This document shows positions 2,979 to 21,207 of a DNA stretch of 21,207 bases, in pieces. The translations under genes were made by a program, and so were the position numbers. The notes beneath the pieces are model-generated. The model searched no databases. It was not told the origin of the DNA and saw nothing but the letters and a program-made list of their open reading frames with translations. The DNA lies in NCBI GenBank assembly GCA_030424595.1, contig JAUHWG010000011.1, forward strand, positions 257,130 to 278,336. Direction: 5' to 3'. Source of the DNA: Polyangia bacterium (lineage in GTDB: Bacteria; Myxococcota_A; Polyangia; Nannocystales; Nannocystaceae). How positions within the stretch are numbered: position 1 is the first letter of the stretch; every line of letters starts with the position of its first letter.

Positions 2979-4745
2979 CTACTCGTCGTGGTCCTTACCC
3001 TCGACGATGTCGGTGAGCGACGCGGCGTCGTGGGAGTGGAACTCGCCGGCCTTGAGGCGGGCGAAGTAGCCGCGGTAGTGCTTCATCGCGATCGCGCCGA
3101 AGATCAGCATGATCGGGATGTTGACGATCAGCATCACGCCGGTGCCCAGGGTGGTGAGGTTGTCGAGCTCGGCGTCGGTCGTGACCAGGCCGACGGTCGC
3201 GAGGACGATCGCGGCGCAGTAGAAGAGCTTGTAGGGGACGACCCAGCGCTCGCCGGCGATGTAGACGACGCCCTGCTCGCCGTAATAGGACCAGGAGATC
3301 ATCGTCGAGAGGGCGAAGAGCCACGACGAGAAGAGGATCAGCCACTTGCCCAGGCCCGGGAGAACGCGGTCGAAGGCGTGGCTGGTCAGGGCGGCGCCGA
3401 CGTAGTCGCGGTAGATGTCCTCGCTCTCGAGCACCGGCGCGGCCGCGCTCTCGATCGAGCCCCACTCGACCCTCCACGCCTCGGCGGTCTCCGGGTCAGC
3501 GACCACATCGCCGCTGATCCGTTGCAGGTCGGTGCCGGTGCTGGGGTCGACGTCGCCGGCGCGGGCGATGGCGAAGACGGTGTCGCCCGCCTTCCACGGG
3601 CCGCTCACCGCCTCGGCCTCGCGGCTCTTGGCCGGGAGGGCCGAGCTGTCGAGGGTCCAGGCGTCGGCCGTCTCAGCGGCGACGAAGGTCGGGGTCTCGG
3701 CGAAATGAGCCTCGCCGTCGCGGTTCCAGGCGCCGCTGGAGAGGATCACCAGCGAGGTCAGGGTGGCGACGACGATCGTGTCGATGAAGGGCTCGAGCCC
3801 GGCGACGACGCCCTCGCGGACCGGCTCGTTGGTCTTCGCCGCCGAGTGGGCGATCGGCGACGAGCCCTGGCCGACCTCGCTGGAGAAGAGCGCGCGCTTC
3901 ATGCCCCAGAGGAAGGCGAGGCCGAAGGAGGCGCCGACGAAGGCGCCGCCGGCCTCGGCCGGGTTGAAGGCGGAGACGACGATCAGGCGGAGCATCGCCG
4001 GGATGGCGTCGAAGTGGACGCCGAGGACGTAGAAGGCGGCGATCAGGTAGATCGCGCACATCACCGGGACGATCCGCCCGGCGACAGCGCCGATCCGCTT
4101 GATCCCGCCGAGGATCACCGCCCCGACGAGGACCGCTTGGATCGCGCCGACCAGCGGCTGCGGGATCCCGAGGCCGTCCTCGGTGACGACCGCGACGTTC
4201 CAGGCCTGGAACATGTTGCCGCCGGTGATCGTGGCGATCAGGAGGGTGATGCAGAAGAGGACGCCGATGATCCGGCCGATCGGGCGCCACTTCGGGTTGC
4301 GCTGGGCGAGCCCCTCCTCGATCACGTACATCGGCCCGCCGTGGGGCTCCTCCGGGTCCTTGGTGTTCCGGAAGAGCATCGACTGGGTGACCTCGGTGGT
4401 CTTGAGGGCCATGCCGAAGATGCCGACGACCCACATCCAGAAGATCGCACCGGGACCGCCGAGGGCGATCGCGACCGCGACGCCGCCGATATTACCGAGG
4501 CCGACGGTCGCCGAGAGTGCGGCCGAGAGGGCCTGGAAGTGGTTGATCGCGCCGGGGTCGTCGTGGTCGTCCCACTTCCCGCGGATGACCGCGACCCCGT
4601 GGGTGAAGGCGTGGTACTGGCAAAATCCGCTCCAGAAGGTGAAGAGGACGCCGACCGCGAGGACCGCGTAGAGGACGAAATCGTGGAAGATGACGCCGTT
4701 GATCGCGCTGAGGACGTCGTTGAAGCTCTGGAGAAATTCGTCCAT
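2979..4745 (-). CDS. Alanine/glycine:cation symporter (AGCS family, TC 2.A.25) with an inserted hydrophilic loop domain
   Basis: The AGCS signature GGPGAIFWMW is present, along with multiple transmembrane segments and a conserved C-terminal LFALSTMISWSYYGEQ block. I place the start at the internal ATG giving MDEFLQSFNDVLSAING. The 18 upstream codons of the track ORF have poor GC3 and are probably not coding. Confidence 0.85.
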   Translation of the reverse strand: MDEFLQSFNDVLSAINGVIFHDFVLYAVLAVGVLFTFWSGFCQYHAFTHGVAVIRGKWDDHDDPGAINHFQALSAALSATVGLGNIGGVAVAIALGGPGAIFWMWVVGIFGMALKTTEVTQSMLFRNTKDPEEPHGGPMYVIEEGLAQRNPKWRPIGRIIGVLFCITLLIATITGGNMFQAWNVAVVTEDGLGIPQPLVGAIQAVLVGAVILGGIKRIGAVAGRIVPVMCAIYLIAAFYVLGVHFDAIPAMLRLIVVSAFNPAEAGGAFVGASFGLAFLWGMKRALFSSEVGQGSSPIAHSAAKTNEPVREGVVAGLEPFIDTIVVATLTSLVILSSGAWNRDGEAHFAETPTFVAAETADAWTLDSSALPAKSREAEAVSGPWKAGDTVFAIARAGDVDPSTGTDLQRISGDVVADPETAEAWRVEWGSIESAAAPVLESEDIYRDYVGAALTSHAFDRVLPGLGKWLILFSSWLFALSTMISWSYYGEQGVVYIAGERWVVPYKLFYCAAIVLATVGLVTTDAELDNLTTLGTGVMLIVNIPIMLIFGAIAMKHYRGYFARLKAGEFHSHDAASLTDIVEGKDHDE

Positions 4746-6730: not shown

Positions 6731-7111
6731 TTGTGGACCGTCGCGCTCGCCCTCCTGCTCGCCCCTTCGACCCTCGCCTGCGCGCCGGCTCAGGGCTGGG
6801 CGCCGTCGGGACAGCGGACCTGCGCCCGCGAGACCCCGGCGATGATCTGCGCCGAGGTCGTCCCCGACAGGCCGCTCCGCTTCGACCTCGGCGGGACCTC
6901 GATCGTCCCCGGCGAGTGCGCCCAGGCCCCAGCCAAGGGCGGGCTCCTCCGGATCGCCGTCGACGACGGCCGCAGCGGTGGGGACGACTATCGCTGGATC
7001 CGGGCGCCGCGCGGGCGGGTTACCTGGGTCAGCGTCCGTGACGATCGGCTCTGGCTCCGGGTCGACCGACGTCAGCGCTGCGATCGCGAGCCCTTCGCCG
7101 GCGCGGAGTAG
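6731..7111 (+). CDS. Small secreted four-Cys protein (hypothetical). Start uncertain: TTG at 6731, or a fusion with the upstream frame through a frameshift.
   Basis: About 90% of third-codon positions are G/C across some 125 codons of this frame. This frame is contained in the implausible track ORF 6383..7111. The product begins with a signal-like LWTVALALLLAPSTLACAPA and continues into a 105-aa domain with four Cys. No competing coding frame exists on either strand. Confidence 0.45.
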   Translation: MWTVALALLLAPSTLACAPAQGWAPSGQRTCARETPAMICAEVVPDRPLRFDLGGTSIVPGECAQAPAKGGLLRIAVDDGRSGGDDYRWIRAPRGRVTWVSVRDDRLWLRVDRRQRCDREPFAGAE

Positions 7112-7172
7112 CAGCTAGGAGTTGGAGTCGGCGGCGAGGACCCTCGCGATGCGCTCCTCGCAGCCTGTGGCA

Positions 7173-7206
7173 GGAGTCCCGTGTGCTCTCGCTTGCCCTC
7201 GTTGGC
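7173..7206 (+). repeat. Dispersed intergenic repeat, copy a (GGAGTCCCGTGTGCTCTCGCTTGCCCTCGTTGGCC)
   Basis: Shares the core AGTCCCGYGYGCTCTCGC plus the flank with five other copies. Lies between convergent gene ends. Confidence 0.55.
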
Positions 7207-8928
7207 CTAGGGAGCGCCGTCGGTGCCGGCGCTGTCGGTCTCGCCGTCGGTCTCGCTGTCGGTCTCGGTCTCGCCTGTCTCCAGGGTCTGGGGGCGGTTG
7301 GCGAGGAGCTGCTCCGCCGCTTTGGCGTCATCCCGGGCCTGGGTGTGCTGGGCGGCGAGGGCGAAGCGTCGCCGCAGCGACCGTTCGCTGGAGTCACCCG
7401 CGGACGGCGCCCGGATCCGTTCGGCGGCGACGACGAGGCGGAGGCTCGCGCCGGTGGGCGGCGCGGCGGCCTCGACCTCTGGCAGGAGCCAGTCGATCTC
7501 GGCGACGAGATCGGAGCGGCGGCTCTCGGTCGAGCGGCGGGTCTCGGGGACCAGCTCGGCGAGGGCGTGGAGGGCCGCGTCGGGGCGAGCGCGGAGGGCT
7601 ATGATCGCCTCGGCGAGCGCCTGCTTGCGGGGCGCGGCGGAGCTCAGCCTCGTGAAGAGGGGGGGGACGACCTCCTGTACGGAGGGCCAGATCGGGGGCG
7701 TCGCCTCGGGGAGGGGCTCCTCGCCGACCCGGGGCGGAGGCGACTCTCGCTGGCGGAGCTCGCTGAAGCGCTCGACCGCCCGGCGCCGGCCGTCCTCTCG
7801 ACCGTGGGCCTGGAGCGCGCTCAGGAGGAGCGCCTCGACGGGATCGCTGCCGATCCGCGGGCTGTAGGCGATCGAGAGGTCGATCGCCTGGTCGACAAAG
7901 CCGCTCTCGATCAGGCGGTCGACCTCGGCGGGCCACGTGCGCATCAGCTCCTGCGGCGTCGGCTCCCCCTCCTCGGCGAGACGCCTACCGACCGCCGCGC
8001 CCTGGAGGTAGCGGCGGCCGGCCGTCCGCTCGCTGAGGAGGAGCGCATCATCACCGCTGTAGGGGGTCGCCTCGACCGCGAGGAGAACCTCGAGGAGGCG
8101 CCGCTCCACGGTCGTCGCCAGGTCGTCGAGGCCCGGGACCCGGCGCCGGCGCTGGGCGTCGGCGAAGTGACGCCCGTAGTGGAGAAAGCGCCCCGCGAGG
8201 ATCCGGGCGAGCGGGGGCAGGGCAGCCCGCGGCGTCAGGCCGAGCTGGAGGAGCGCCTCGTCGTAGGTCCGGGCGAGCAGGGCGTTCGCCTTGATCCGCG
8301 CCGTATGGGTCGCGGTCCGCTCATGCCGGCGTTGACCGGCGAGGACGAGCAGGCCGAGCACGCGGTCATCGATCGGCGAGACCCGGGCGCCCAAGGGATC
8401 CTCGAGGGCGTCGTTGAGGGTCGCCGGGTCCGGCGGGGTCGTCGGCCTGTCGAGGGCGACGAGGCGGGCGATCCCGCGGAGATCGGCCGCGCTCCCCAGG
8501 GTGCCGAGGAGGTCGGCCGCAGCCGCCGGTGAGTCGGCGCTGAGGAGCCGGGCGCGGGCCTCGACGGCGGCGGCCGGACCTCTGCGCTCCGGACAGGCGA
8601 TCGCCCGGGCAGCCGGGGAGATGTCGCAAGGGGGACTCTCCTGGGCTGGGATCGCAGGATCCGCCTGGGCTGCGCTCTCCTCGGGCGGATCCTCGCGGTC
8701 GCCGCATGCGGGCCCGCTGCTCACGAGCAGGGCGACGAGGCCGCAGCCCGTGAGGAAGCCGACCTTTGGGGCTCGTCGCGGAGGATCCGAGGGATCGTCC
8801 CGTCCTCGTCCGCGCAGGGCGGAGGTCCGAGGTCTGGGATCGAGGCGCGTTCGCCCGCGCCTCGGCGGGCGACCGCCGCTGCGCGTGCCATCCGCAGGGG
8901 GGCTGACGCCGTCCACGCCTGATCTCAC
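7207..8928 (-). CDS. Hypothetical protein (573 aa) with an Arg/Pro-rich N-terminus, an internal signal-like hydrophobic segment and an acidic Thr/Glu/Asp C-terminal tail
   Basis: Third positions are GC-rich in this frame for 19 of 20 codons in the sampled stretch, against 15 of 20 for the overlapping + strand ORF 7183..8532. The GTG start overlaps the TGA stop of the upstream PilZ gene (GTGA). I recognised no domain. Confidence 0.6.
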   Translation of the reverse strand: MRSGVDGVSPPADGTRSGGRPPRRGRTRLDPRPRTSALRGRGRDDPSDPPRRAPKVGFLTGCGLVALLVSSGPACGDREDPPEESAAQADPAIPAQESPPCDISPAARAIACPERRGPAAAVEARARLLSADSPAAAADLLGTLGSAADLRGIARLVALDRPTTPPDPATLNDALEDPLGARVSPIDDRVLGLLVLAGQRRHERTATHTARIKANALLARTYDEALLQLGLTPRAALPPLARILAGRFLHYGRHFADAQRRRRVPGLDDLATTVERRLLEVLLAVEATPYSGDDALLLSERTAGRRYLQGAAVGRRLAEEGEPTPQELMRTWPAEVDRLIESGFVDQAIDLSIAYSPRIGSDPVEALLLSALQAHGREDGRRRAVERFSELRQRESPPPRVGEEPLPEATPPIWPSVQEVVPPLFTRLSSAAPRKQALAEAIIALRARPDAALHALAELVPETRRSTESRRSDLVAEIDWLLPEVEAAAPPTGASLRLVVAAERIRAPSAGDSSERSLRRRFALAAQHTQARDDAKAAEQLLANRPQTLETGETETDSETDGETDSAGTDGAP

Positions 8929-14941: not shown

Positions 14942-16657
14942 ATGCGATCCTCTACGCCTCTGGTCCCCCTCTCCGGTCGCGGCCTGGCGACGCTGCTCGG
15001 CGCGGTCGGCCTCCTCCTCGGCGGCGCCTGCGGTGACGATGCCATAGGCACCGCGTCGGACAGCGCGACGGGCTCGACGGGCACCGGCACCGGGACGGCG
15101 ACGGTCTCCGAGACCGAGAGCGGCAGCGGCAGCGCCGGCGATTGCACCCCGGGCCAGACCCAAGAATGCTCCTGTCCTGAGGGTCAGGGGACGCAGGTCT
15201 GCGCCGCGGACGGAGGAGGCTACGGCGCGTGCGAATGCCCCGGGCCGGCGGTCTGCGGCGACGGTGAGGTCGCGGAGGGAGAGGAGTGCGACGACGGGGC
15301 TGCGAACGCCGACGACGGCGCCTGCACCAGCGAGTGCAAGCTGGCCTCCTGCGGTGACGGTGTCGTCCAGACCAGCGTCGAGATCTGCGACGACGGGGTC
15401 AACGACGGGGCCTACGGCGGCTGCGAGGAGGGCTGCGGCGCCCTCGCCCCCTACTGCGGCGACGGGATGACCAACGGCCCCGAGGCCTGTGACGACGGCG
15501 ACGAGGTCGACGGTGACGGCTGCAACGCCGACTGTCGCCAGTCGGGGGCCGAGGTCTGGACGAAGAAGTACTCCGGCCGCGACGCGGGCGACGCCAGGGC
15601 CCACGGGGTCGCGGTCGATCTCGACGGTAACGTCATCGTCGTAGGAGAGGAGTTTGTCGTCGGTCAGGGCGCGAACATCTGGATGGCCAAGTACACCAGC
15701 GAAGGGGAGCAGCTGTGGACCCAGACCCGCTCCGGCAACGGCACCTTCGCCGACGTCGCCCGCGGGGTCGCGGTGGACTCGGCCGGCGACTACATCGTCG
15801 TCGGTGAGCTCTCCGTCCAGGGCGAGGACGGCAACCTCTGGGTCCTCAAGATGGACCCCTCCGGCGAGGAGATCTGGTCCGACGTCTACAACGGACCGAG
15901 CGACCTCGGCGACAGCGGCAACGGGGTCGCGATCGACAGCGAAGACAACATCTGGGTCGTCGGCGAGGAGTACAAGCTGATCGGCCTCAAGAACATCGTC
16001 GTCCGCAAATACGACCCCGACGGGACCCTCCTCTGGGACGACATCTATGATCATAAGGCCGGCAATGACAGGGCCCACGGCGTCGTCGTCCTCAGCGACG
16101 ACACCGCGGTCGTCGTCGGCTCTGTCTACGAGCCGATAGGCCTCGCCGATCTCTTCGTCCGCCGCTACACCGCCTCCGGCACCGAGTTCTGGACCAAGAT
16201 GTGGGACAGCGCCGCGGGCAACGACATCATCCGCGGCGTCGCCCGAGACGTCGACGACAACGTCATCCTGGTAGGCGAGGTCTACGCGCCGATCGGCCTC
16301 GCGAACGTCTGGATCCGCAAGCTCTCAGACACCGGCCTCGAGCTGTGGACCCAGATCCACGACTCCGCCGGCTCCGACAACGACATCGGCCGCGGAGCTG
16401 CGGTCGCCCCCGACGGCACGATCGTCGTCGCCGGTCAGGAGTACACGGCCAACGACTTCGCCGCGGCGTGGGTGCGGAAGGTGACCCCTGAGGACGGCGC
16501 CGAGATGTGGACCCATATCCACGACGGCGACGAGGCGGGGCAGGACATCGCCAGAGCCGTCGCGATCGACCCCGCGACGGGCTACATCTACGCCGCCGGT
16601 CAGGAGTACGAGGCGGGCAACTTCGCCGCGCTCTGGCTGCGCAAGCTGACCCCCTGA
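14942..16657 (+). CDS. Lipoprotein with three Myxococcus cysteine-rich repeats followed by a 7-blade SBBP-type beta-propeller
   Basis: The signal peptide plus lipobox is LLLGGAC, followed by a Thr/Gly linker. Three CGDG...EECDDG-type repeats follow. Then come seven repeats of W..G.....D.A.GVAVD..GN..VVGE. Codon periodicity is consistent with coding. Confidence 0.8.
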   Translation: MRSSTPLVPLSGRGLATLLGAVGLLLGGACGDDAIGTASDSATGSTGTGTGTATVSETESGSGSAGDCTPGQTQECSCPEGQGTQVCAADGGGYGACECPGPAVCGDGEVAEGEECDDGAANADDGACTSECKLASCGDGVVQTSVEICDDGVNDGAYGGCEEGCGALAPYCGDGMTNGPEACDDGDEVDGDGCNADCRQSGAEVWTKKYSGRDAGDARAHGVAVDLDGNVIVVGEEFVVGQGANIWMAKYTSEGEQLWTQTRSGNGTFADVARGVAVDSAGDYIVVGELSVQGEDGNLWVLKMDPSGEEIWSDVYNGPSDLGDSGNGVAIDSEDNIWVVGEEYKLIGLKNIVVRKYDPDGTLLWDDIYDHKAGNDRAHGVVVLSDDTAVVVGSVYEPIGLADLFVRRYTASGTEFWTKMWDSAAGNDIIRGVARDVDDNVILVGEVYAPIGLANVWIRKLSDTGLELWTQIHDSAGSDNDIGRGAAVAPDGTIVVAGQEYTANDFAAAWVRKVTPEDGAEMWTHIHDGDEAGQDIARAVAIDPATGYIYAAGQEYEAGNFAALWLRKLTP

Positions 16658-16900: not shown

Positions 16901-17473
16901 TTAGGAGGCGCTCTCGCTGGGTGCCAGGCGGAAGAGCGCGTCGCGGAGTTTGTCGAGCTTGTCGAGCATCGCCCCATCGCCGCGGATCGACGCGAGGATC
17001 GCCGCCTCCGCCTCGGCCGTGAGGGCGTCGGTCATCGCCTGGCTGAGCCCCACGCTCGCGCCGATCTCGGAGATCCGCTCGAGCTCTTCGTCGGAGAGTC
17101 CGTCGCGGGCGGCGATCGTCGCGACCCCGTTGACCAGGTACATCGCCTTCGCGCTGCCGGCGGGCACGAGCTCGCTGACATGCTCATCGTTGGCGGAGCT
17201 GAGGTCGATCGCCATCAGCTGATCCTGGGCGACCGGCGGCACGCCGTAGTGGCTGAGCAGCGCCCGCATGCCGTTGGACTCCGCGGTCGAGAGGCCGTCG
17301 GTCGCGGCGATGTGGCGGGCGACGAGCGCGAGGCCGATGACCTCCTGGATGGTCAGCTCGATCCCGGCGGCGTAGCGAGAGCTTCTCTGAGCGGCGCTCT
17401 TGAGCTGTTCGGCGACGGCGTCGTCGAGGCTAGCGAGGAGGGTTTGGGCGCTGTCGTGGAAGGGGTTAGGCAT
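16901..17473 (-). CDS. TerB-like (tellurite-resistance TerB family) protein
   Basis: Two repeats of the TerB-like helix motif are present (IAATDGLSTAESNGMRALL and IAARDGLSDEELERISEIG). I place the start at the internal ATG giving MPNPFHD. The 48 upstream codons have lower GC3 than the body (15 of 20 against 19 of 20). Confidence 0.5.
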   Translation of the reverse strand: MPNPFHDSAQTLLASLDDAVAEQLKSAAQRSSRYAAGIELTIQEVIGLALVARHIAATDGLSTAESNGMRALLSHYGVPPVAQDQLMAIDLSSANDEHVSELVPAGSAKAMYLVNGVATIAARDGLSDEELERISEIGASVGLSQAMTDALTAEAEAAILASIRGDGAMLDKLDKLRDALFRLAPSESAS

Positions 17474-17582
17474 GGCTTCGTCGCTGCGTGGCCGCGATGC
17501 CGGAGATGATCGCAGGGCCTTGGGGCGACGACAAGGCGCGGTCCCGAGCGGACGAAGGCGCTCGCTCGACGAGAGGGCCCGA

Positions 17583-17612
17583 GGAGCCCCCGCGCGCTCT
17601 CGCGCGGCCGCC
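17583..17612 (+). repeat. Dispersed intergenic repeat, copy e (GGAGCCCCCGCGCGCTCTCGCGCGGCCGCC)
   Basis: Core match CCCGCGCGCTCTCGC. Confidence 0.45.
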
Positions 17613-17626
17613 GTCATGCCTGGGCT

Positions 17627-17650
17627 GCGACGATGCGACGATGCGACGAC
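17627..17650. repeat. Tandem octamer (GCGACGAT)x3 in the intergenic spacer
   Basis: Read directly from the sequence: gcgacgat gcgacgat gcgacgac. Confidence 0.6.
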
Positions 17651-17712
17651 GCGCGGCTCCGTCAGGCTCGACCGCAGGCCTGCGGTCCCGAGCGGGCGAC
17701 GTGCCTGGGGCC

Positions 17713-17755
17713 GCTAGCAGCCCCTGGCACAAGTCCCGTCGTGCTCGACTCGGCC
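17713..17755 (+). repeat. Dispersed intergenic repeat, copy f (GCTAGCAGCCCCTGGCACAAGTCCCGTCGTGCTCGACTCGGCC)
   Basis: Matches copy b over the CTAGCAG..AAGTCCCG..GTGCTC core, with one indel. Confidence 0.45.
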
Positions 17756-17818
17756 AAGACTTGGAGTACGGCCCGGTCCCGCGGCGTCTTGTCCGAGCCG
17801 AGAGGTCACGAGGGTCTG

Positions 17819-18796
17819 CTAGGAGCTCGTCGGGCGCTCCGCGACGACGAGGGCGATCCACCCAGCGAAGGCCTCGCTCGTGACGAGCGAGCGGGCGCGG
17901 TCTGCGAGACGTTCCCGGATGAGGGGTCGCCAGGCGTCGATGAGACCGGACTCCGCGAGCAGATCGGCGAGCGAGCGCTCGCCCAGGGCCCCTTGGAGCC
18001 GCTCGATCCCCCCGCGGAGCGAAGCCTCGAGCTCGTCCCACTCGGCGATCGCCTGGAGGAGGGCGACCGCGTCGGCGGCGAGGTCCGTGTGCGCGATCTT
18101 GTCGAGCTCGGCGACGAAGCGGACCTGCGGTTGGCCCAGGAGCTCGCGGACGCTGTCGGAGCGCCAGGCCGCCATCTCATCGCTGTGCTTTGGATCGGAG
18201 ATCCGCTCGATCACCATGTCGATCGTGTTGGCCAACGCGCCGTCGACGAAGGCGTTGACCTTGTCGTCGAGCTGGCGCTCGACCTCCGTCCCGACGACGC
18301 TGGCGACCCCCTTGGCCATGTCCATCAGCCGCGAGCGGAAGCCTGCACCGGGGATCCTGCGGGTGTCCGGGAGCGCCGACCACATCTTCTTGCCGAACTC
18401 GAGCAGCGTGCTTTGGAGGATTGAGCGCATCATCGACCGCATCGCCGCGTGGTTGATCGCCGCTCGGACGAGCTCCTGACCGGGGGTGAAGGGGCGCCCC
18501 AGGGCGGTCGCAAGCGCGGACGGAAGGGTCGGCGGGAGGGCGGCGGCGACGGACCCCTCATCGGTCTTAATGTGCCCCCTCAGCTCCCCCAGCTCCTGCT
18601 CGATCCAGGGCGCGAGGCCTGGGTTCGCAGCGGTCTCTCTGAGCGCCGTCGCGACGCCGGTCGCCAGCATCTCGGCCGGGCCGAGCGCGTCACGGAGCGG
18701 CTGCGCGAGCGCATGATCGAGGAGAACGTCGACACCCGCGTCGACGAGCGCAGGGTCTGTCCGGAGGCGGTTGATAATGGTCGCTGGGTCGATCAT
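17819..18796 (-). CDS. Hypothetical all-alpha protein (325 aa)
   Basis: I place the start at the internal ATG giving MIDPATIINRL. The 50-codon N-terminal extension in the track overlaps a dispersed repeat copy and is Arg/Gly-rich junk. The body has strong GC3 periodicity and is rich in Leu, Ala, Glu and Arg helical sequence. Confidence 0.6.
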   Translation of the reverse strand: MIDPATIINRLRTDPALVDAGVDVLLDHALAQPLRDALGPAEMLATGVATALRETAANPGLAPWIEQELGELRGHIKTDEGSVAAALPPTLPSALATALGRPFTPGQELVRAAINHAAMRSMMRSILQSTLLEFGKKMWSALPDTRRIPGAGFRSRLMDMAKGVASVVGTEVERQLDDKVNAFVDGALANTIDMVIERISDPKHSDEMAAWRSDSVRELLGQPQVRFVAELDKIAHTDLAADAVALLQAIAEWDELEASLRGGIERLQGALGERSLADLLAESGLIDAWRPLIRERLADRARSLVTSEAFAGWIALVVAERPTSS

Positions 18797-18806
18797 CGCG
18801 CGCACC

Positions 18807-18858
18807 CTAGCAGACCGCGGCAAAAGTCCCGCGCGCTCTCGCTTGCCCTCGTCCGCCC
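18807..18858 (+). repeat. Dispersed intergenic repeat, copy b (CTAGCAGACCGCGGCAAAAGTCCCGCGCGCTCTCGCTTGCCCTCGTCCGCC)
   Basis: Longest copy. Starts 11 nt upstream of the 325-aa gene start, in the divergent promoter region. Confidence 0.55.
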
Positions 18859-18916
18859 CCTCGGCCCCGCCGAAACTTGCGGTACGGCCTCGTACAGCGG
18901 CGTTTCGTCGAAGCCA

Positions 18917-18960
18917 AGAGGGCCAACGATGGCGGCGCGAGAGCACACGGGACTTTCGCC
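18917..18960 (-). repeat. Dispersed intergenic repeat, copy c (inverted; reverse complement reads GGCGAAAGTCCCGTGTGCTCTCGCGCCGCCATCGTTGGCCC)
   Basis: The reverse complement matches copy a at 18 of 18 positions in the core and shares the CGTTGGCC flank. Confidence 0.55.
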
Positions 18961-18965
18961 ACGGG

Positions 18966-19014
18966 CTGCTCGCAGGCCGCGGAAAAAGTCGCGCACGCTC
19001 TCGCTCGTCCGGGC
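18966..19014 (+). repeat. Dispersed intergenic repeat, copy d (CTGCTCGCAGGCCGCGGAAAAAGTCGCGCACGCTCTCGCTCGTCCGGGC)
   Basis: Direct repeat of copy b about 160 bp downstream, with conserved core and upstream flank. Confidence 0.5.
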
Positions 19015-19174
19015 ACCGCGTCTGCGACGGCGGGCAGCAGGCCCGCTCTCCGACGGGATCGAGCTCGACCGCGGGAGAGAGCGCCGTGGTGTCGGGCGCT
19101 TGTGGCCAGGCACAGGGCCCCCGCGTCGCATGTGGAGGGTGGCATCGGCCGAAGGGCCGTGGCCTGATCGAACC

Positions 19175-21207
19175 ATGGTGGAATTACATAGGGTTCGGGG
19201 GCGCTTTGTCGTCGGGGCGCTCACGTTGGGCTGCGCCGGTCTTGGCTGCAACGGAGATGACAATGCGAGCGGGACCGACTCGGCGACGAGCACCGAGGGG
19301 ACCGTCGGGACCGCGACGACGACGACCGGCGGGACTGGTACGGACACGGAGGGGACGACGTCGATGTCGGGCTCGGGCACGGCGAGCGCCACCATGGGGA
19401 CGACCGCGGGCACCGACGCGACGACCATGGACGTGACCGTGACCGCCTCCGAGAGTGAGAGCGCGAGCGACACGGCGACCGAGAGCGAGAGCGGCACCGA
19501 GACCGGCGGTGATGACCTCTGCGTCGGCGGCACCCTCTGCGGAGAGCCCGCGAGCTGTTGCCCCATGGGCAACGAGTGCGTCGAGGACAGCTGTCTCCCC
19601 GAGTGTGCGAGCGAGGTCCGCTGCGGGCCTATGCTCGAGCTGTGCTGTGACGAGGGAGATGTCTGCTCCGGCAATACATGCGCGACGCCAGGCGTCCCCT
19701 GTCAGGACTCCTATGATTGTGAGCAAGGCGAGTACTGCGAGCCCGTTCTCGACAAGTGCCTCCCCCAGCCCGATCCCTTGACCTGCGAGCTCATCCCCGA
19801 CTTTGATGAGCTTACGGTCGCCCTCGAGTGGTCCTATACCGACGATCAGATCATCTCCATCCCGGTCGTCGCCGACCTCGACGGCGACCTGGTCCCGGAG
19901 GTCGTCATCAACACGACCAAGGAGCCCGGCGGATCCTGGCCTGACGGGGCCATCGTCGTTCTCAACGGCCAGACCGGCGACGTCATCTGGAAGAACGCCC
20001 ACGACCCGAACAACAACAAGTTCGGCTCCCACGGGCGCTCCTCGATCGCCCTCGGCGACGTCAACGGCGATCAGCTCCCGGACATCATCTACGCCGGACG
20101 GACCACCGGCGGCCGCTCCCCGATCCACGCGGTGGACTCCACCGGCGCGCTCCTGTGGACCTCCCGGACCGCCAACAATCAGCTCGCGACCACGACCGTC
20201 GAGAACGGCGCTGCGACCCTCGCCAACCTCGACGACGACCCTGAGGCCGAGATCATCTTCGGCGCCGCCATCTTCGACAACGACGGCCTCATGGTCTGGT
20301 CTCAGGGCGGCAATGGTGGGGTCTACGGGACCTCCAATGGGTACACCGGCGGAGTCTCGGCTGCGGTCGATCTCGACGGTGACAACTATCCGGAGATCGT
20401 CTCCGGTCGTGATGCCTGGAAGATCGACTGGCAGGTCGACAACAACAACGATCCCGTCGTCAACGTCGTCCCCTTCTGGCAGAGCCCCGGCGCCGACGGC
20501 TATCCTGCCATCGCCGATCTCGACAGCAATGGGACCCCAGAGGTCATCATCGTAGGCTCTTCCTCCGTGCGGATCGTCGACGGCGCGACCGGCAAGCTCT
20601 GGTGCGGCGTCGATCCCTCAGGCGTCGCCTGCGAGAACAACGACAACGCCCGGACCCAGCCCTACCCGGTCCGCGGGGGAGGTCGTGGCGGTCCCCCGAC
20701 CGTCGCTGACTTCGACGGAGACGGACGTCCCGAGGTCGGCATCGCCGGCGCATCCCGCTACGCCGTCTACGACTTCAACCGCGACGGCGAAGAGGTCGTC
20801 AAGCCGGGCGGAGACCCCGACCCCGCCGCCGGAGCGGTCTTTGTCCGCTGGTCGAAGGTCACCCAGGACGTCTCCTCCAACGCCACTGGCTCCTCCGTCT
20901 TCGACTTCCAGGGAGACGGCGCAGCCGAGGTCGTCTACGCCGACGAATGCTTCATGCGCGTCTACTCGGGCACCGACGGCACCGTACAGCTTGAGGTGCA
21001 AAACTCGAGCGCCACGATCCACGAATACCCCCTCGTCGTCGACGCCGACGCCGACGGCAACTCCGAGATCCTCGTCGTCGCCAACATCCTCAGCTGCAAC
21101 GTCCCCAACTTCACCCCACGCCAAGGCCTCTACGTCTACGGCGACGCCGGCGACGGCTGGGTCCCGACCCGCAAGGTGTGGACCTCACACACGTATCACG
21201 TGACCAA
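19175..21207 (+). CDS. FG-GAP repeat lipoprotein with an N-terminal Thr/Gly/Ser linker and a Cys-rich module (3' end lies outside the window)
   Basis: Absent from the ORF track because there is no stop in the window. My own translation from the ATG at 19175 gives MVELHRVRGRFVVGALTLGCAGLGC (signal peptide with a lipoprotein-like Cys), then a T/G/S-rich linker. A module with about 20 Cys follows (CCPMGNECVEDSCLPECAS...). At least eight FG-GAP repeats follow (ADLDGDLVPEVVI, GDVNGDQLPDIIY, VDLDGDNYPEIVS, ADFDGDGRPEVGI, FDFQGDGAAEVVY and others). GC3 is high. An alternative ATG lies at 19130. The - strand ORF 19184..20128 is antisense. Confidence 0.8.
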   Translation, partial: MVELHRVRGRFVVGALTLGCAGLGCNGDDNASGTDSATSTEGTVGTATTTTGGTGTDTEGTTSMSGSGTASATMGTTAGTDATTMDVTVTASESESASDTATESESGTETGGDDLCVGGTLCGEPASCCPMGNECVEDSCLPECASEVRCGPMLELCCDEGDVCSGNTCATPGVPCQDSYDCEQGEYCEPVLDKCLPQPDPLTCELIPDFDELTVALEWSYTDDQIISIPVVADLDGDLVPEVVINTTKEPGGSWPDGAIVVLNGQTGDVIWKNAHDPNNNKFGSHGRSSIALGDVNGDQLPDIIYAGRTTGGRSPIHAVDSTGALLWTSRTANNQLATTTVENGAATLANLDDDPEAEIIFGAAIFDNDGLMVWSQGGNGGVYGTSNGYTGGVSAAVDLDGDNYPEIVSGRDAWKIDWQVDNNNDPVVNVVPFWQSPGADGYPAIADLDSNGTPEVIIVGSSSVRIVDGATGKLWCGVDPSGVACENNDNARTQPYPVRGGGRGGPPTVADFDGDGRPEVGIAGASRYAVYDFNRDGEEVVKPGGDPDPAAGAVFVRWSKVTQDVSSNATGSSVFDFQGDGAAEVVYADECFMRVYSGTDGTVQLEVQNSSATIHEYPLVVDADADGNSEILVVANILSCNVPNFTPRQGLYVYGDAGDGWVPTRKVWTSHTYHVT

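Follow-up and report, generated by a model that had tools for sequence, protein, structure and literature searches.

A CTAG-inserting MITE as the probable source of intergenic repeats in a Nannocystaceae myxobacterium

Introduction

Prokaryotic MITEs are small elements with terminal inverted repeats (TIRs) and flanking direct repeats, which also occur as deletion derivatives and whose transcripts may form hairpins (PMC10969869). With regard to insertion sites, IS630 was described to prefer the TA within CTAG (Tenzen and Ohtsubo 1991, as cited in PMC2170065), and CTAG has been reported as a consistent target-site duplication of IS5 (PMC10379815).

In this study, we analyzed a stretch of 21,207 nucleotides (hereafter the window) from an uncultured myxobacterium of the family Nannocystaceae. 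A previous sequence-only reading of this DNA had noticed a ~45-bp repeat in several intergenic spacers, and had named a MITE-like or REP element, the binding site of a regulator and a structured RNA motif as candidates. Here, we found that these repeats are very probably the inverted ends of a ~160-bp non-coding MITE that inserts at the rare tetranucleotide CTAG, often at a TAG stop codon. This MITE represents a new family within a well-known class of elements.

Results

Repeats in the window

The repeat core, AGTCCCGYGYGCTCTCGC, was matched five times in the window, compared with a mean of 0.7 expected by chance from 100 shuffled sequences, none of which reached five. The shared unit described previously is therefore real, correctly placed and above chance. 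Three matches were exact (7175 and 18825 on the plus strand and 18937 on the minus strand), and two additional plus-strand matches contained two (18987) and three (17586) mismatches. The core of a further copy, designated e, carries a 1-nt insertion and was recovered by the family profile. All copies in the window lie outside genes, in agreement with the non-coding location claimed before. However, the ~45-bp unit is not free-standing but represents the terminal inverted repeat of an element of 158-165 bp. Copies b and c, which had been considered separate, are the two arms of one palindromic element, and the inverted repeat noticed between them is not limited to 20 bp, as complementarity spans the whole element. 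Thus, the seven units noted before amount to five elements, which are listed below together with two neighbouring segments:

18811..18968, plus strand: complete element bc, 158-bp body (profile E=3.5e-50, model positions 8-175); left arm 18811-~18857 (copy b), right arm ~18920-18968 (copy c); flanked by CTAG (18807-18810) and CTCG (18969-18972)
18973..19109 (far boundary approximate), plus strand: element d, older and decayed (profile match 18969-19009, E=5.7e-5)
17718..17818, plus strand: element e, 101-bp body (profile E=2.7e-12); flanked by CTAG (17714-17717) and CTAG (17819-17822)
17560..17712 (approximate), minus strand: copy f, old and degenerate (weak profile match 17578-17644, E=0.0076)
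7161..7206, plus strand: solo arm a, 46 bp (profile E=6.4e-8); flanked by CTCG (7157-7160) and CTAG (7207-7210)
17474..17559, minus strand: conserved region upstream of the 190-aa gene, outside the element
19115..19174, plus strand: region upstream of the FG-GAP gene, outside the element; conserved in the window and the relatives L071 and L072, partly in L074

The 325-aa gene has its ATG at 18796, and the left end of bc lies 10 nt away from it. Of element d, a single arm can still be recognised (18973-~19019, copy d), on the side facing bc, and its orthologues are better preserved in L071 (2185-2302) and L072 (2645-2776). Element e is a deletion derivative from which one arm core and a portion of the second arm are missing. 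The 325-aa gene ends in a TAG stop codon that lies within the CTAG at 17819-17822, at the end of e, and the CTAG beside arm a likewise includes the stop TAG of the minus-strand 573-aa gene. Copy f is recognisable mainly through synteny with L071, whose aligned copy is decayed to a similar degree but has no (TGCGACGA)x3.5 microsatellite, whereas f contains one at 17626-17653. This tandem repeat and a doubled CGGTCCCGAGCGG (17539 and 17683) are the small repeats that had been reported for the 345-bp spacer; the latter is statistically unremarkable, at least two matches being found in 13 of 100 shuffles.

Outside the elements, the segment 17474..17559 is nearly invariant among the window, L071, L072 and the more distant L074, and contains TTGTCG-17 nt-GATCAT, a promoter-like arrangement upstream of the 190-aa gene. 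The label "TerB-like", which had been given to the 190-aa protein, was not supported by Pfam or NCBIfam. In total, about three quarters of the DNA in the 345-bp and 378-bp spacers comes from the element, which explains most of their unusual length and allows the element DNA to be separated from the short, probably regulatory segments that show true conservation.

Anatomy of the element

A full copy is 158-165 bp long, non-coding, G+C-rich (~70%, as in the host) and nearly perfectly palindromic, with two arms of ~45-50 bp around a centre that is itself a palindrome. Complementarity between the left and the right arm exceeds 45 nt, such that the arms represent terminal inverted repeats and the whole element forms one hairpin. 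Full copies and derivatives (46-110 bp) are within the size range of MITEs (<500 bp, non-coding), and are too short to contain a transposase.

Aligned copies share this architecture, and both of their ends carry either CTAG or a variant of it with one base changed. CTAG itself was observed at about half or more of the ends, and the remainder are one-base variants. One flank is often CTCG or CTGG rather than CTAG, including those of bc and a, and perfect duplications are rare; such imperfect pairs could reflect either decay or a CTAG that belongs to the element. Terminal variants co-vary between the two ends (CAGCCCGTGG...CCACGGGCTG versus GAGGCCGTGG...CCACGGCCTC), and pair 9-167 is CG in four and GC in four of the aligned copies. 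Many copies, such as a, e, L062 and L067, are deletion derivatives that lack the hairpin.

Filled and empty sites in close relatives

Orthologous sites were compared using syntenic contigs of close relatives from the family Nannocystaceae. Element bc is absent from L071, L072 and L073, which contain a single CTAG at this site, and removal of bc plus one tetranucleotide from the window yields ...CCGCGGCCTG-CTAG-GGTGCGCGCGATG, as observed in these three relatives. Removal of e (17714-17818) yields ...GAGCTC-CTAG-CGGCCCC, which is collinear with L071, where the stop-codon CTAG directly precedes the same flank; L074 likewise has a bare CTAG stop, and its spacer measures 81 bp. Similarly, removal of a (7157-7206) yields ...CCC-TAG-GAGCGC, collinear with L080 (a 90%-identical orthologue), whose empty site is TTAG followed by the same flank.

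In all three comparisons, the difference between filled and empty sites is exactly the element plus one tetranucleotide. Because the sequences become collinear again around one CTAG (TTAG for a) once the element is taken out, this difference shows insertion with target duplication, which the sequence-only reading had proposed to look for as a sign of mobility. Every empty site includes TA within CTAG or TTAG, and duplications of 2 bp (TA) and 4 bp (CTAG) are indistinguishable here since the CTAG target is palindromic. Both the window and an 86% relative (L072) carry element e, whereas a 94% relative (L071) lacks it; this pattern requires either independent insertions at one CTAG or precise loss.

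Distribution beyond the window

A 24-nt arm pattern matched 16 metagenome contigs from two data sets, which have only the repeat in common with the window or with one another. The occurrence of copies elsewhere, a check raised previously, was thus observed at 16 unrelated chromosomal loci. The family profile detected 31 copies or fragments in 110 kb, including the five in the window, and further copies in the syntenic relatives. Contig ends often fall within the element (L054 at both ends, L059, L060, L061 and L069), as multi-copy repeats disrupt assembly.

The 20 ORFs adjoining copies are ordinary chromosomal genes encoding FtsZ, MlaD, RsmF, an ECF sigma factor, an aminotransferase and others, with no transposase among them. 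TAG stop codons abut many copies, and all five copies located among called genes in L071 and L072 are intergenic. When a genome collection was scanned with a 19-nt core, at least 53 matches were obtained, and those listed were all single chance matches in coding DNA of unrelated phyla. Searches of plasmids (BLAST with the full element) and viral contigs (pattern scan) returned only chance fragments or nothing.

Folding, strand asymmetry and RNA signals

Element bc folds as one long hairpin on both the plus (-102.2 kcal/mol, z -8.4) and the minus strand (-131.3 kcal/mol, z -12.6), and a transcript through any complete copy would be predicted to form a very stable hairpin. Six single arms were also folded as DNA, and their z values relative to shuffles ranged from -0.1 to +1.8. 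A hairpin within each arm (GGCAA...TTGCC), which was considered by eye, was rejected as the arms fold no better than shuffled sequences.

In all 13 copies, the antisense strand gives the better fold. This asymmetry traces to six C.A positions that the whole family has inherited from a master copy, and the rare private substitutions in the stem show no strand preference for keeping G.U pairs (29 versus 21). Strand-specific selection on an RNA was rejected for these reasons.

None of the Rfam families matched the repeats or their vicinity at E<=1. The sole Rfam match in the window was a sub-threshold Guanidine-II at 4169-4212. Scans of 17300-19300 for sigma-70 promoters and intrinsic terminators, which are crude for myxobacteria, identified no sites; thus, the elements do not resemble classical terminators and are without consensus promoters. 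The orientation of copies relative to the adjoining gene is about 4 versus 4, without bias, and the near-palindromic sequence makes this assignment unreliable for decayed copies. Unstructured arms together with the lack of Rfam matches and of strand bias argue that the element is not primarily a REP, a regulator site or a dedicated RNA.

Discussion

Possible mechanism of insertion

It is likely that a transposase encoded elsewhere in the genome would bind the conserved arm core (GGCRRRAGTCCCGYGYGCTCTCGC), cut at the element ends and insert the element at CTAG, and that insertion would duplicate CTAG or its central TA. Such mobilisation would occur in trans; neighbouring ORFs, plasmids and viral contigs yielded no autonomous element sharing these ends. 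Transposases of the IS630/Tc1-like (TA within CTAG) and IS5-like (CTAG) types are both compatible with the target.

CTAG occurs only 20 times in the window compared with 58 expected from base composition. Copies are intergenic because this tetranucleotide is depleted and almost confined to TAG stop codons and intergenic DNA, so copies land immediately past a stop codon or shortly ahead of a start codon, and gene bodies are always spared. As each insertion adds a new flanking CTAG, elements stack side by side, as did bc, which entered the CTAG next to the older element d.

Alternative explanations

Among the candidates proposed previously, a MITE-like element agrees with the TIRs, the CTAG flanks, the dispersal and the three empty sites, whereas a REP was not supported, nor was a regulator site as the primary function. 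One alternative is a REP/REPIN, in which two inverted REP units form a single-stranded DNA hairpin mobilised by a RAYT (HUH/Y1) transposase, with CTAG as the cleavage or recognition tetranucleotide. The element is indeed an inverted doublet with a long hairpin, the same strand folds better in each of the 13 copies as if one DNA strand were the substrate, and a CTAG-carrying element inserting beside another CTAG could mimic a duplication. However, a REP unit is an imperfect palindrome and the single arms are not palindromes, the head is CTAG instead of GTAG, and the strand asymmetry arises from the six master-copy positions, without bias in private changes. In addition, no RAYT gene is present among the 20 adjoining ORFs, albeit a small sample. 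We consider a REP/REPIN very unlikely.

It appears even less probable that the copies are a cis-acting structured RNA family (a leader, a 3' stabilising or terminating structure, or an RNase III target) which is kept by selection and for which mobility is the origin only. The structured RNA motif suggested before stands insofar as transcripts of full copies would form hairpins of -100 to -131 kcal/mol. Copies are also located directly past stop codons, bc lies immediately before a start codon, the DNA upstream of the 325-aa gene comes almost wholly from the element in three lineages, and Correia and ERIC elements are known to have such effects (PMC10969869). On the other hand, neither an Rfam match nor U-tract terminators were found, copies show no orientation preference, rare stem substitutions have no strand bias, many derivatives are without the hairpin, and presence or absence varies among close relatives. 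Clustering around the 190-aa, 325-aa and FG-GAP genes and strong conservation of the core might also suggest operator sites of a regulator controlling these three genes, and an arm-like sequence could be recognised by eye, below the profile threshold, upstream of the 325-aa orthologue in the distant L074. Yet the same sequence occurs beside unrelated housekeeping genes on 16 other contigs, follows stop codons as often as it lies upstream of genes, is found between convergent genes, and is absent at orthologous sites of close relatives; moreover, the truly conserved segments upstream of the 190-aa and FG-GAP genes fall outside the repeats. Operator sites are therefore extremely unlikely.

Possible co-option and significance

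Under the preferred MITE explanation, the 5' leader hairpin noticed for the 325-aa gene is possibly a consequence of insertion and not its cause. Since the upstream DNA of this gene is almost entirely derived from the element in three lineages, its promoter or leader must include element sequence, and the TAGGGTGCGCGCG-ATG beside the element end at the gene start is conserved even in the distant relative. Co-option of the terminal arm at this gene, as a promoter or a regulatory 5' hairpin, is conceivable but doubtful. If this is the case, new insertions into the flanking CTAG would swap the arm for a near-identical one. More generally, a CTAG-seeking MITE could represent a genome-wide module that sits at start and stop codons and shapes the ends of mRNAs, and the element may influence the expression of adjoining genes.

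With these results, a MITE family with a clear target rule (CTAG) is documented in Nannocystaceae, and this rule accounts for the strictly intergenic, stop-codon-adjacent distribution without invoking selection. In practical terms, the element breaks metagenome assemblies, and its use as a strain marker is possible, given that three of the five copies in the window vary between close relatives. General concepts are unchanged, as MITEs with such properties are well known.

Comparison with known systems

IS630/Tc1-mariner-derived (Stowaway-like) MITEs insert at TA and are flanked by its duplication, and the insertion sites of the element are compatible with this pattern; no IS630-family transposase with its ends was found. 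The terminal sequence CAG...TGGC-AAAAG may resemble Tc1-type ends. A 4-bp CTAG (YTAR) duplication, as for IS5, is equally compatible with the sites, and no IS5-family transposase with the ends of the element was detected. After CTAG, these ends begin with GAG or CAG; IS5-family ends begin with GA or GG.

REP/REPIN sequences with their RAYT share with the element short intergenic repeats, inverted doublets, a long hairpin and high copy number. They differ in the palindromic single unit and the GTAG head discussed above, and in contrast to them, filled and empty sites of the element differ by the element plus one tetranucleotide, resembling target duplication.

Compared with the prokaryotic MITEs, which are typically AT-rich and have inverted repeats of 4-30 bp (PMC10969869), the element is G+C-rich and its inverted repeat spans almost the whole length. 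Its target, the CTAG tetranucleotide, ties insertions to TAG stop codons, unlike prokaryotic MITEs in general. The host group is not among the taxa listed by that review, and no description of such an element was found in the papers searched. On the other hand, like Correia of Neisseria, Chunjie of Geobacter and QMITE of Coxiella (PMC10969869), the element is non-coding and shorter than 500 bp, and has terminal inverted repeats and flanking direct repeats. It also shares with prokaryotic MITEs many dispersed intergenic copies, numerous deletion derivatives, nesting of copies, and transcripts that are predicted to form very stable hairpins.

Repeat copies and anatomy of the element

Inspection of the sequence located the repeats of the sequence-only reading in 17200-19500 and at the site near 7173. 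Their best-conserved stretch, AGTCCCGYGYGCTCTCGC, recurs exactly at three window positions (7175+, 18825+ and 18937-) and imperfectly at 18987+ (two mismatches) and 17586+ (three mismatches), whereas shuffled sequences gave a mean of 0.7 and no shuffle reached five. These copies also emerged from an unbiased repeat search, grouped into one direct family (D8) and one inverted pair (I5), and the small repeats claimed for the 345-bp spacer between the 325-aa and 190-aa genes are present. On these grounds the original observation stands. Copies b and c, which had been described as a 20-bp inverted repeat, are indeed inverted; however, they are two arms of a single element rather than independent units, and the DNA between them is palindromic as well.

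A family profile made from eleven full-length copies and searched across 110 kb revealed 31 copies or fragments, five of them in the window. These matches and the body of the complete element bc are as follows:

7154-7208: copy a
17578-17644: copy f (weak match)
17713-17811: copy e
18805-18972: copy bc
18811-18968: body of element bc, flanked by CTAG (18807-18810) and CTCG (18969-18972)
18969-19009: copy d

Element bc folds into a single uninterrupted hairpin (-102.2 kcal/mol, z = -8.4 on the plus strand; -131.3 kcal/mol, z = -12.6 on the minus strand; -53.8 kcal/mol when folded as DNA). Copy e shares an arm and the central part with bc, and its terminus CTGCTAG, the inverse of its initial CTAGCAG, coincides exactly with the 325-aa gene's stop codon. 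The recurrent layout in metagenome copies is CTAG, arm, central palindrome, inverted arm and CTAG, with a total of 158-165 bp; shorter deletion forms were also found.

When a genome collection was searched with the 19-nt core, the matches listed were only chance ones in coding DNA of unrelated phyla. Scanning of metagenome contigs with the longer arm pattern GGCRRRAGTCCCGYGYGCTCTCGC identified 16 contigs from two data sets, which have nothing in common with the window or each other except the repeat. Several contigs start or end in the element interior, and the sole public contig with the 325-aa protein, 100% identical to the window, ends within e on one side and within b on the other. Breaks of this kind are typical where a multi-copy repeat interrupts short-read assembly.

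Insertion and target duplication

The 325-aa protein has its homologues in MAGs of Nannocystaceae and Nannocystis; the DUF4215 cysteine-rich repeat protein and ~70% G+C fit Myxococcota. Contigs encoding orthologues are syntenic with the window (L071, 94% identity; L072 and L073, 86%; L074 and L075, 73%), as are L076-L080, which were reached via the 573-aa protein, and the syntenic contigs confirmed the starts of the 325-aa and 190-aa genes. None of the 190-aa, 325-aa and 573-aa proteins, which are conserved only in Nannocystaceae-like genomes, gave a Pfam or NCBIfam hit of meaningful E-value, and neither database supports the TerB-like label of the 190-aa protein (16901-17473, minus strand).

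Spacer lengths vary among these relatives, and the variation consists of elements. At the bc site, the window without 18811-18972 (the body and one tetranucleotide) is collinear with L071, L072 and L073, whose empty sites all read ...CCGCGGCCTG-CTAG-GGTGCGCGCGATG; on the same strand the window reads ...CCTG-CGAG-(bc)-CTAG-GGTG.... Since three relatives are collinear at a single CTAG, bc was inserted into the CTAG bordering element d, which is older and common to all three lineages. At the e site, the window without 17714-17818 is collinear with L071, in which the same flank begins immediately after the stop-codon CTAG, and the more distant L074 has a bare CTAG stop just 81 bp from the next gene. 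At the a site, removal of 7157-7206 gives collinearity with L080, which reads CCT-TAG-GAGCGC.... Thus, close relatives are polymorphic for three of the five copies in the window, and filled minus empty equals the element plus one CTAG-like tetranucleotide. The search for target-site duplications, proposed earlier as a check of mobility, was therefore positive at three window sites. The duplication is CTAG or its central TA, as a palindromic target gives the same result for both. A further case is suggestive: the DLH gene has a copy at its stop-codon CTAG in L076 and a bare CTAG in L071, with downstream flanks that are not cleanly alignable; in the window it ends differently, with a TGA stop and no element copy.

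One flank is frequently CTCG or CTGG rather than CTAG (e.g. at bc and a), which the insertion model leaves unexplained; its decay in many elements suggests ongoing CTAG loss. Copy e is present in the window and L072 and missing from the closer relative L071, which implies that one CTAG was hit twice or that the element was lost precisely; slippage across the hairpin from one flanking CTAG to the other could plausibly account for such a loss. In the more distant relative L078 (GCA_964474905.1, 11612-13200), the site orthologous to copy a is instead occupied by an AT-rich spacer plus an additional 446-aa gene; no profile-detectable copy was found in the ~32 kb covered of this genome.

CTAG depletion and stop codons

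The window contains 20 CTAGs compared with 58 expected from base composition: 6 are stop codons, ~10 intergenic and ~4 within genes on our own gene map. Because most of the window is occupied by genes and CTAG is rare and mainly found at stops or between genes, an element requiring CTAG would be steered to gene ends. We offer this as the reason for the non-coding location of the copies. Many copies across the family adjoin a TAG (or TAA) stop, and in L071 and L072, whose genes were called by a tool, all five copies that lie among these genes are intergenic. TGA is usually the prevailing stop in genomes of ~70% G+C. Here, TAG was the most frequent stop in high-GC3 ORFs (~10/16 in the window and 19/~36 in metagenome loci L055-L070), which fits a genome keeping CTAG mainly at gene ends.

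Several other sites were observed. At 2936-2949, CTAGGAGGCCGT, the first 12 nt of a GAG-type terminus, coincides exactly with the 194-aa gene's stop codon, within a convergent spacer of 39 bp. The remainder of the element is absent, and a lost copy may have left this piece as a remnant or footprint. Within 7107-7125, roughly 40 bp from copy a, TAGCAG-CTAGGAG follows closely on the TAG stop at 7109-7111 and juxtaposes both terminus types, CTAGCAG and CTAGGAG. The metagenome contig L070 (1100-3520) has a truncated copy at a TAG stop and, beyond it, a segment of lower G+C that may be a separate insertion; the translation of this segment's 558-aa ORF is visibly rich in pentapeptide-like repeats.

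Conserved flanks and neighbouring genes

The truly conserved portions of both spacers lie outside the repeats, and the ten nt preceding the 325-aa start codon are conserved too:

17474-17559, minus strand: upstream region of the 190-aa gene (~85 nt), near-invariant in four genomes including the 73% relative
~60 nt: upstream segment of the FG-GAP gene

The former contains one copy of CGGTCCCGAGCGG and TTGTCG-17 nt-GATCAT, which by its sequence is a likely promoter. In L071 and L072, nothing but element d and the upstream segment of the FG-GAP gene precedes the 325-aa gene, so that element sequence must form part of this gene's promoter or leader. In the window, bc inserts 162 bp between this gene and d; the adjoining 45 nt are almost unchanged, as the terminal arm of bc is nearly identical to the displaced d arm. 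There, a transcript from upstream would bear a predicted hairpin of -131 kcal/mol that stops 10 nt short of the 325-aa start codon.

Two further features were noted. A sub-threshold Guanidine-II riboswitch match (4169-4212, minus strand; 25.3 bits vs gathering score 32, E=0.2) within the sodium:alanine symporter gene is probably due to chance, and six in-frame repeats (15589-16653, period ~156-159 nt) in the 571-aa DUF4215/beta-propeller gene are protein repeats with no relation to the element.

Nature of the element

Regulator binding sites, REP or MITE-like elements and a structured RNA had been proposed. The unrelated neighbouring genes (FtsZ, MlaD, RsmF, an ECF sigma factor and others), the positions downstream of stop codons and the presence/absence among relatives speak against an operator. 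REP-type units are expected to be palindromes in themselves; the folding of six single arms did not surpass that of shuffled sequences (z -0.1 to +1.8), and the element is headed by CTAG, not GTAG. A dedicated RNA might be suspected from the better-folding strand, which is the same in 13/13 copies; however, this uniformity is accounted for by six C.A positions that the whole family shares and that presumably go back to a master copy. Where a pair is otherwise Watson-Crick, rare changes on a single side retained G.U on one strand in 29 cases and on the opposite strand in 21, i.e. without bias, no Rfam model matched the repeats and no U-tract terminator was found around them, all of which argue against such an RNA. 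The co-variation of the ends (CAG...CTG vs GAG...CTC) is expected of transposon subfamilies as much as of an RNA.

The MITE half of the earlier suggestion agrees with anatomy, dispersal and insertion, and a non-autonomous DNA transposon that is mobilised in trans is the reading with the best support. Its most conserved part, the arm core, would likely be the transposase-binding site. No transposase was found near any copy examined (20 neighbouring ORFs), in plasmids or in viral contigs. IS630, with its preference for the TA of CTAG (Tenzen and Ohtsubo 1991, as cited in PMC2170065), and IS5, for which CTAG duplication has been reported (PMC10379815), are both compatible with the target. The host group is itself unusual, since no MITE of it appears in a review of prokaryotic MITEs (PMC10969869) or was found in the literature searched. 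Recognition of the element helps annotate these genomes; its general interest is modest. It resembles prokaryotic MITEs (PMC10969869) in size, terminal inverted repeats, flanking duplications, dispersal, deletion derivatives, nesting and hairpin-forming transcripts, whereas its high G+C, near-complete palindromy and CTAG target with stop-codon association are unusual. It is a new family within this known class.
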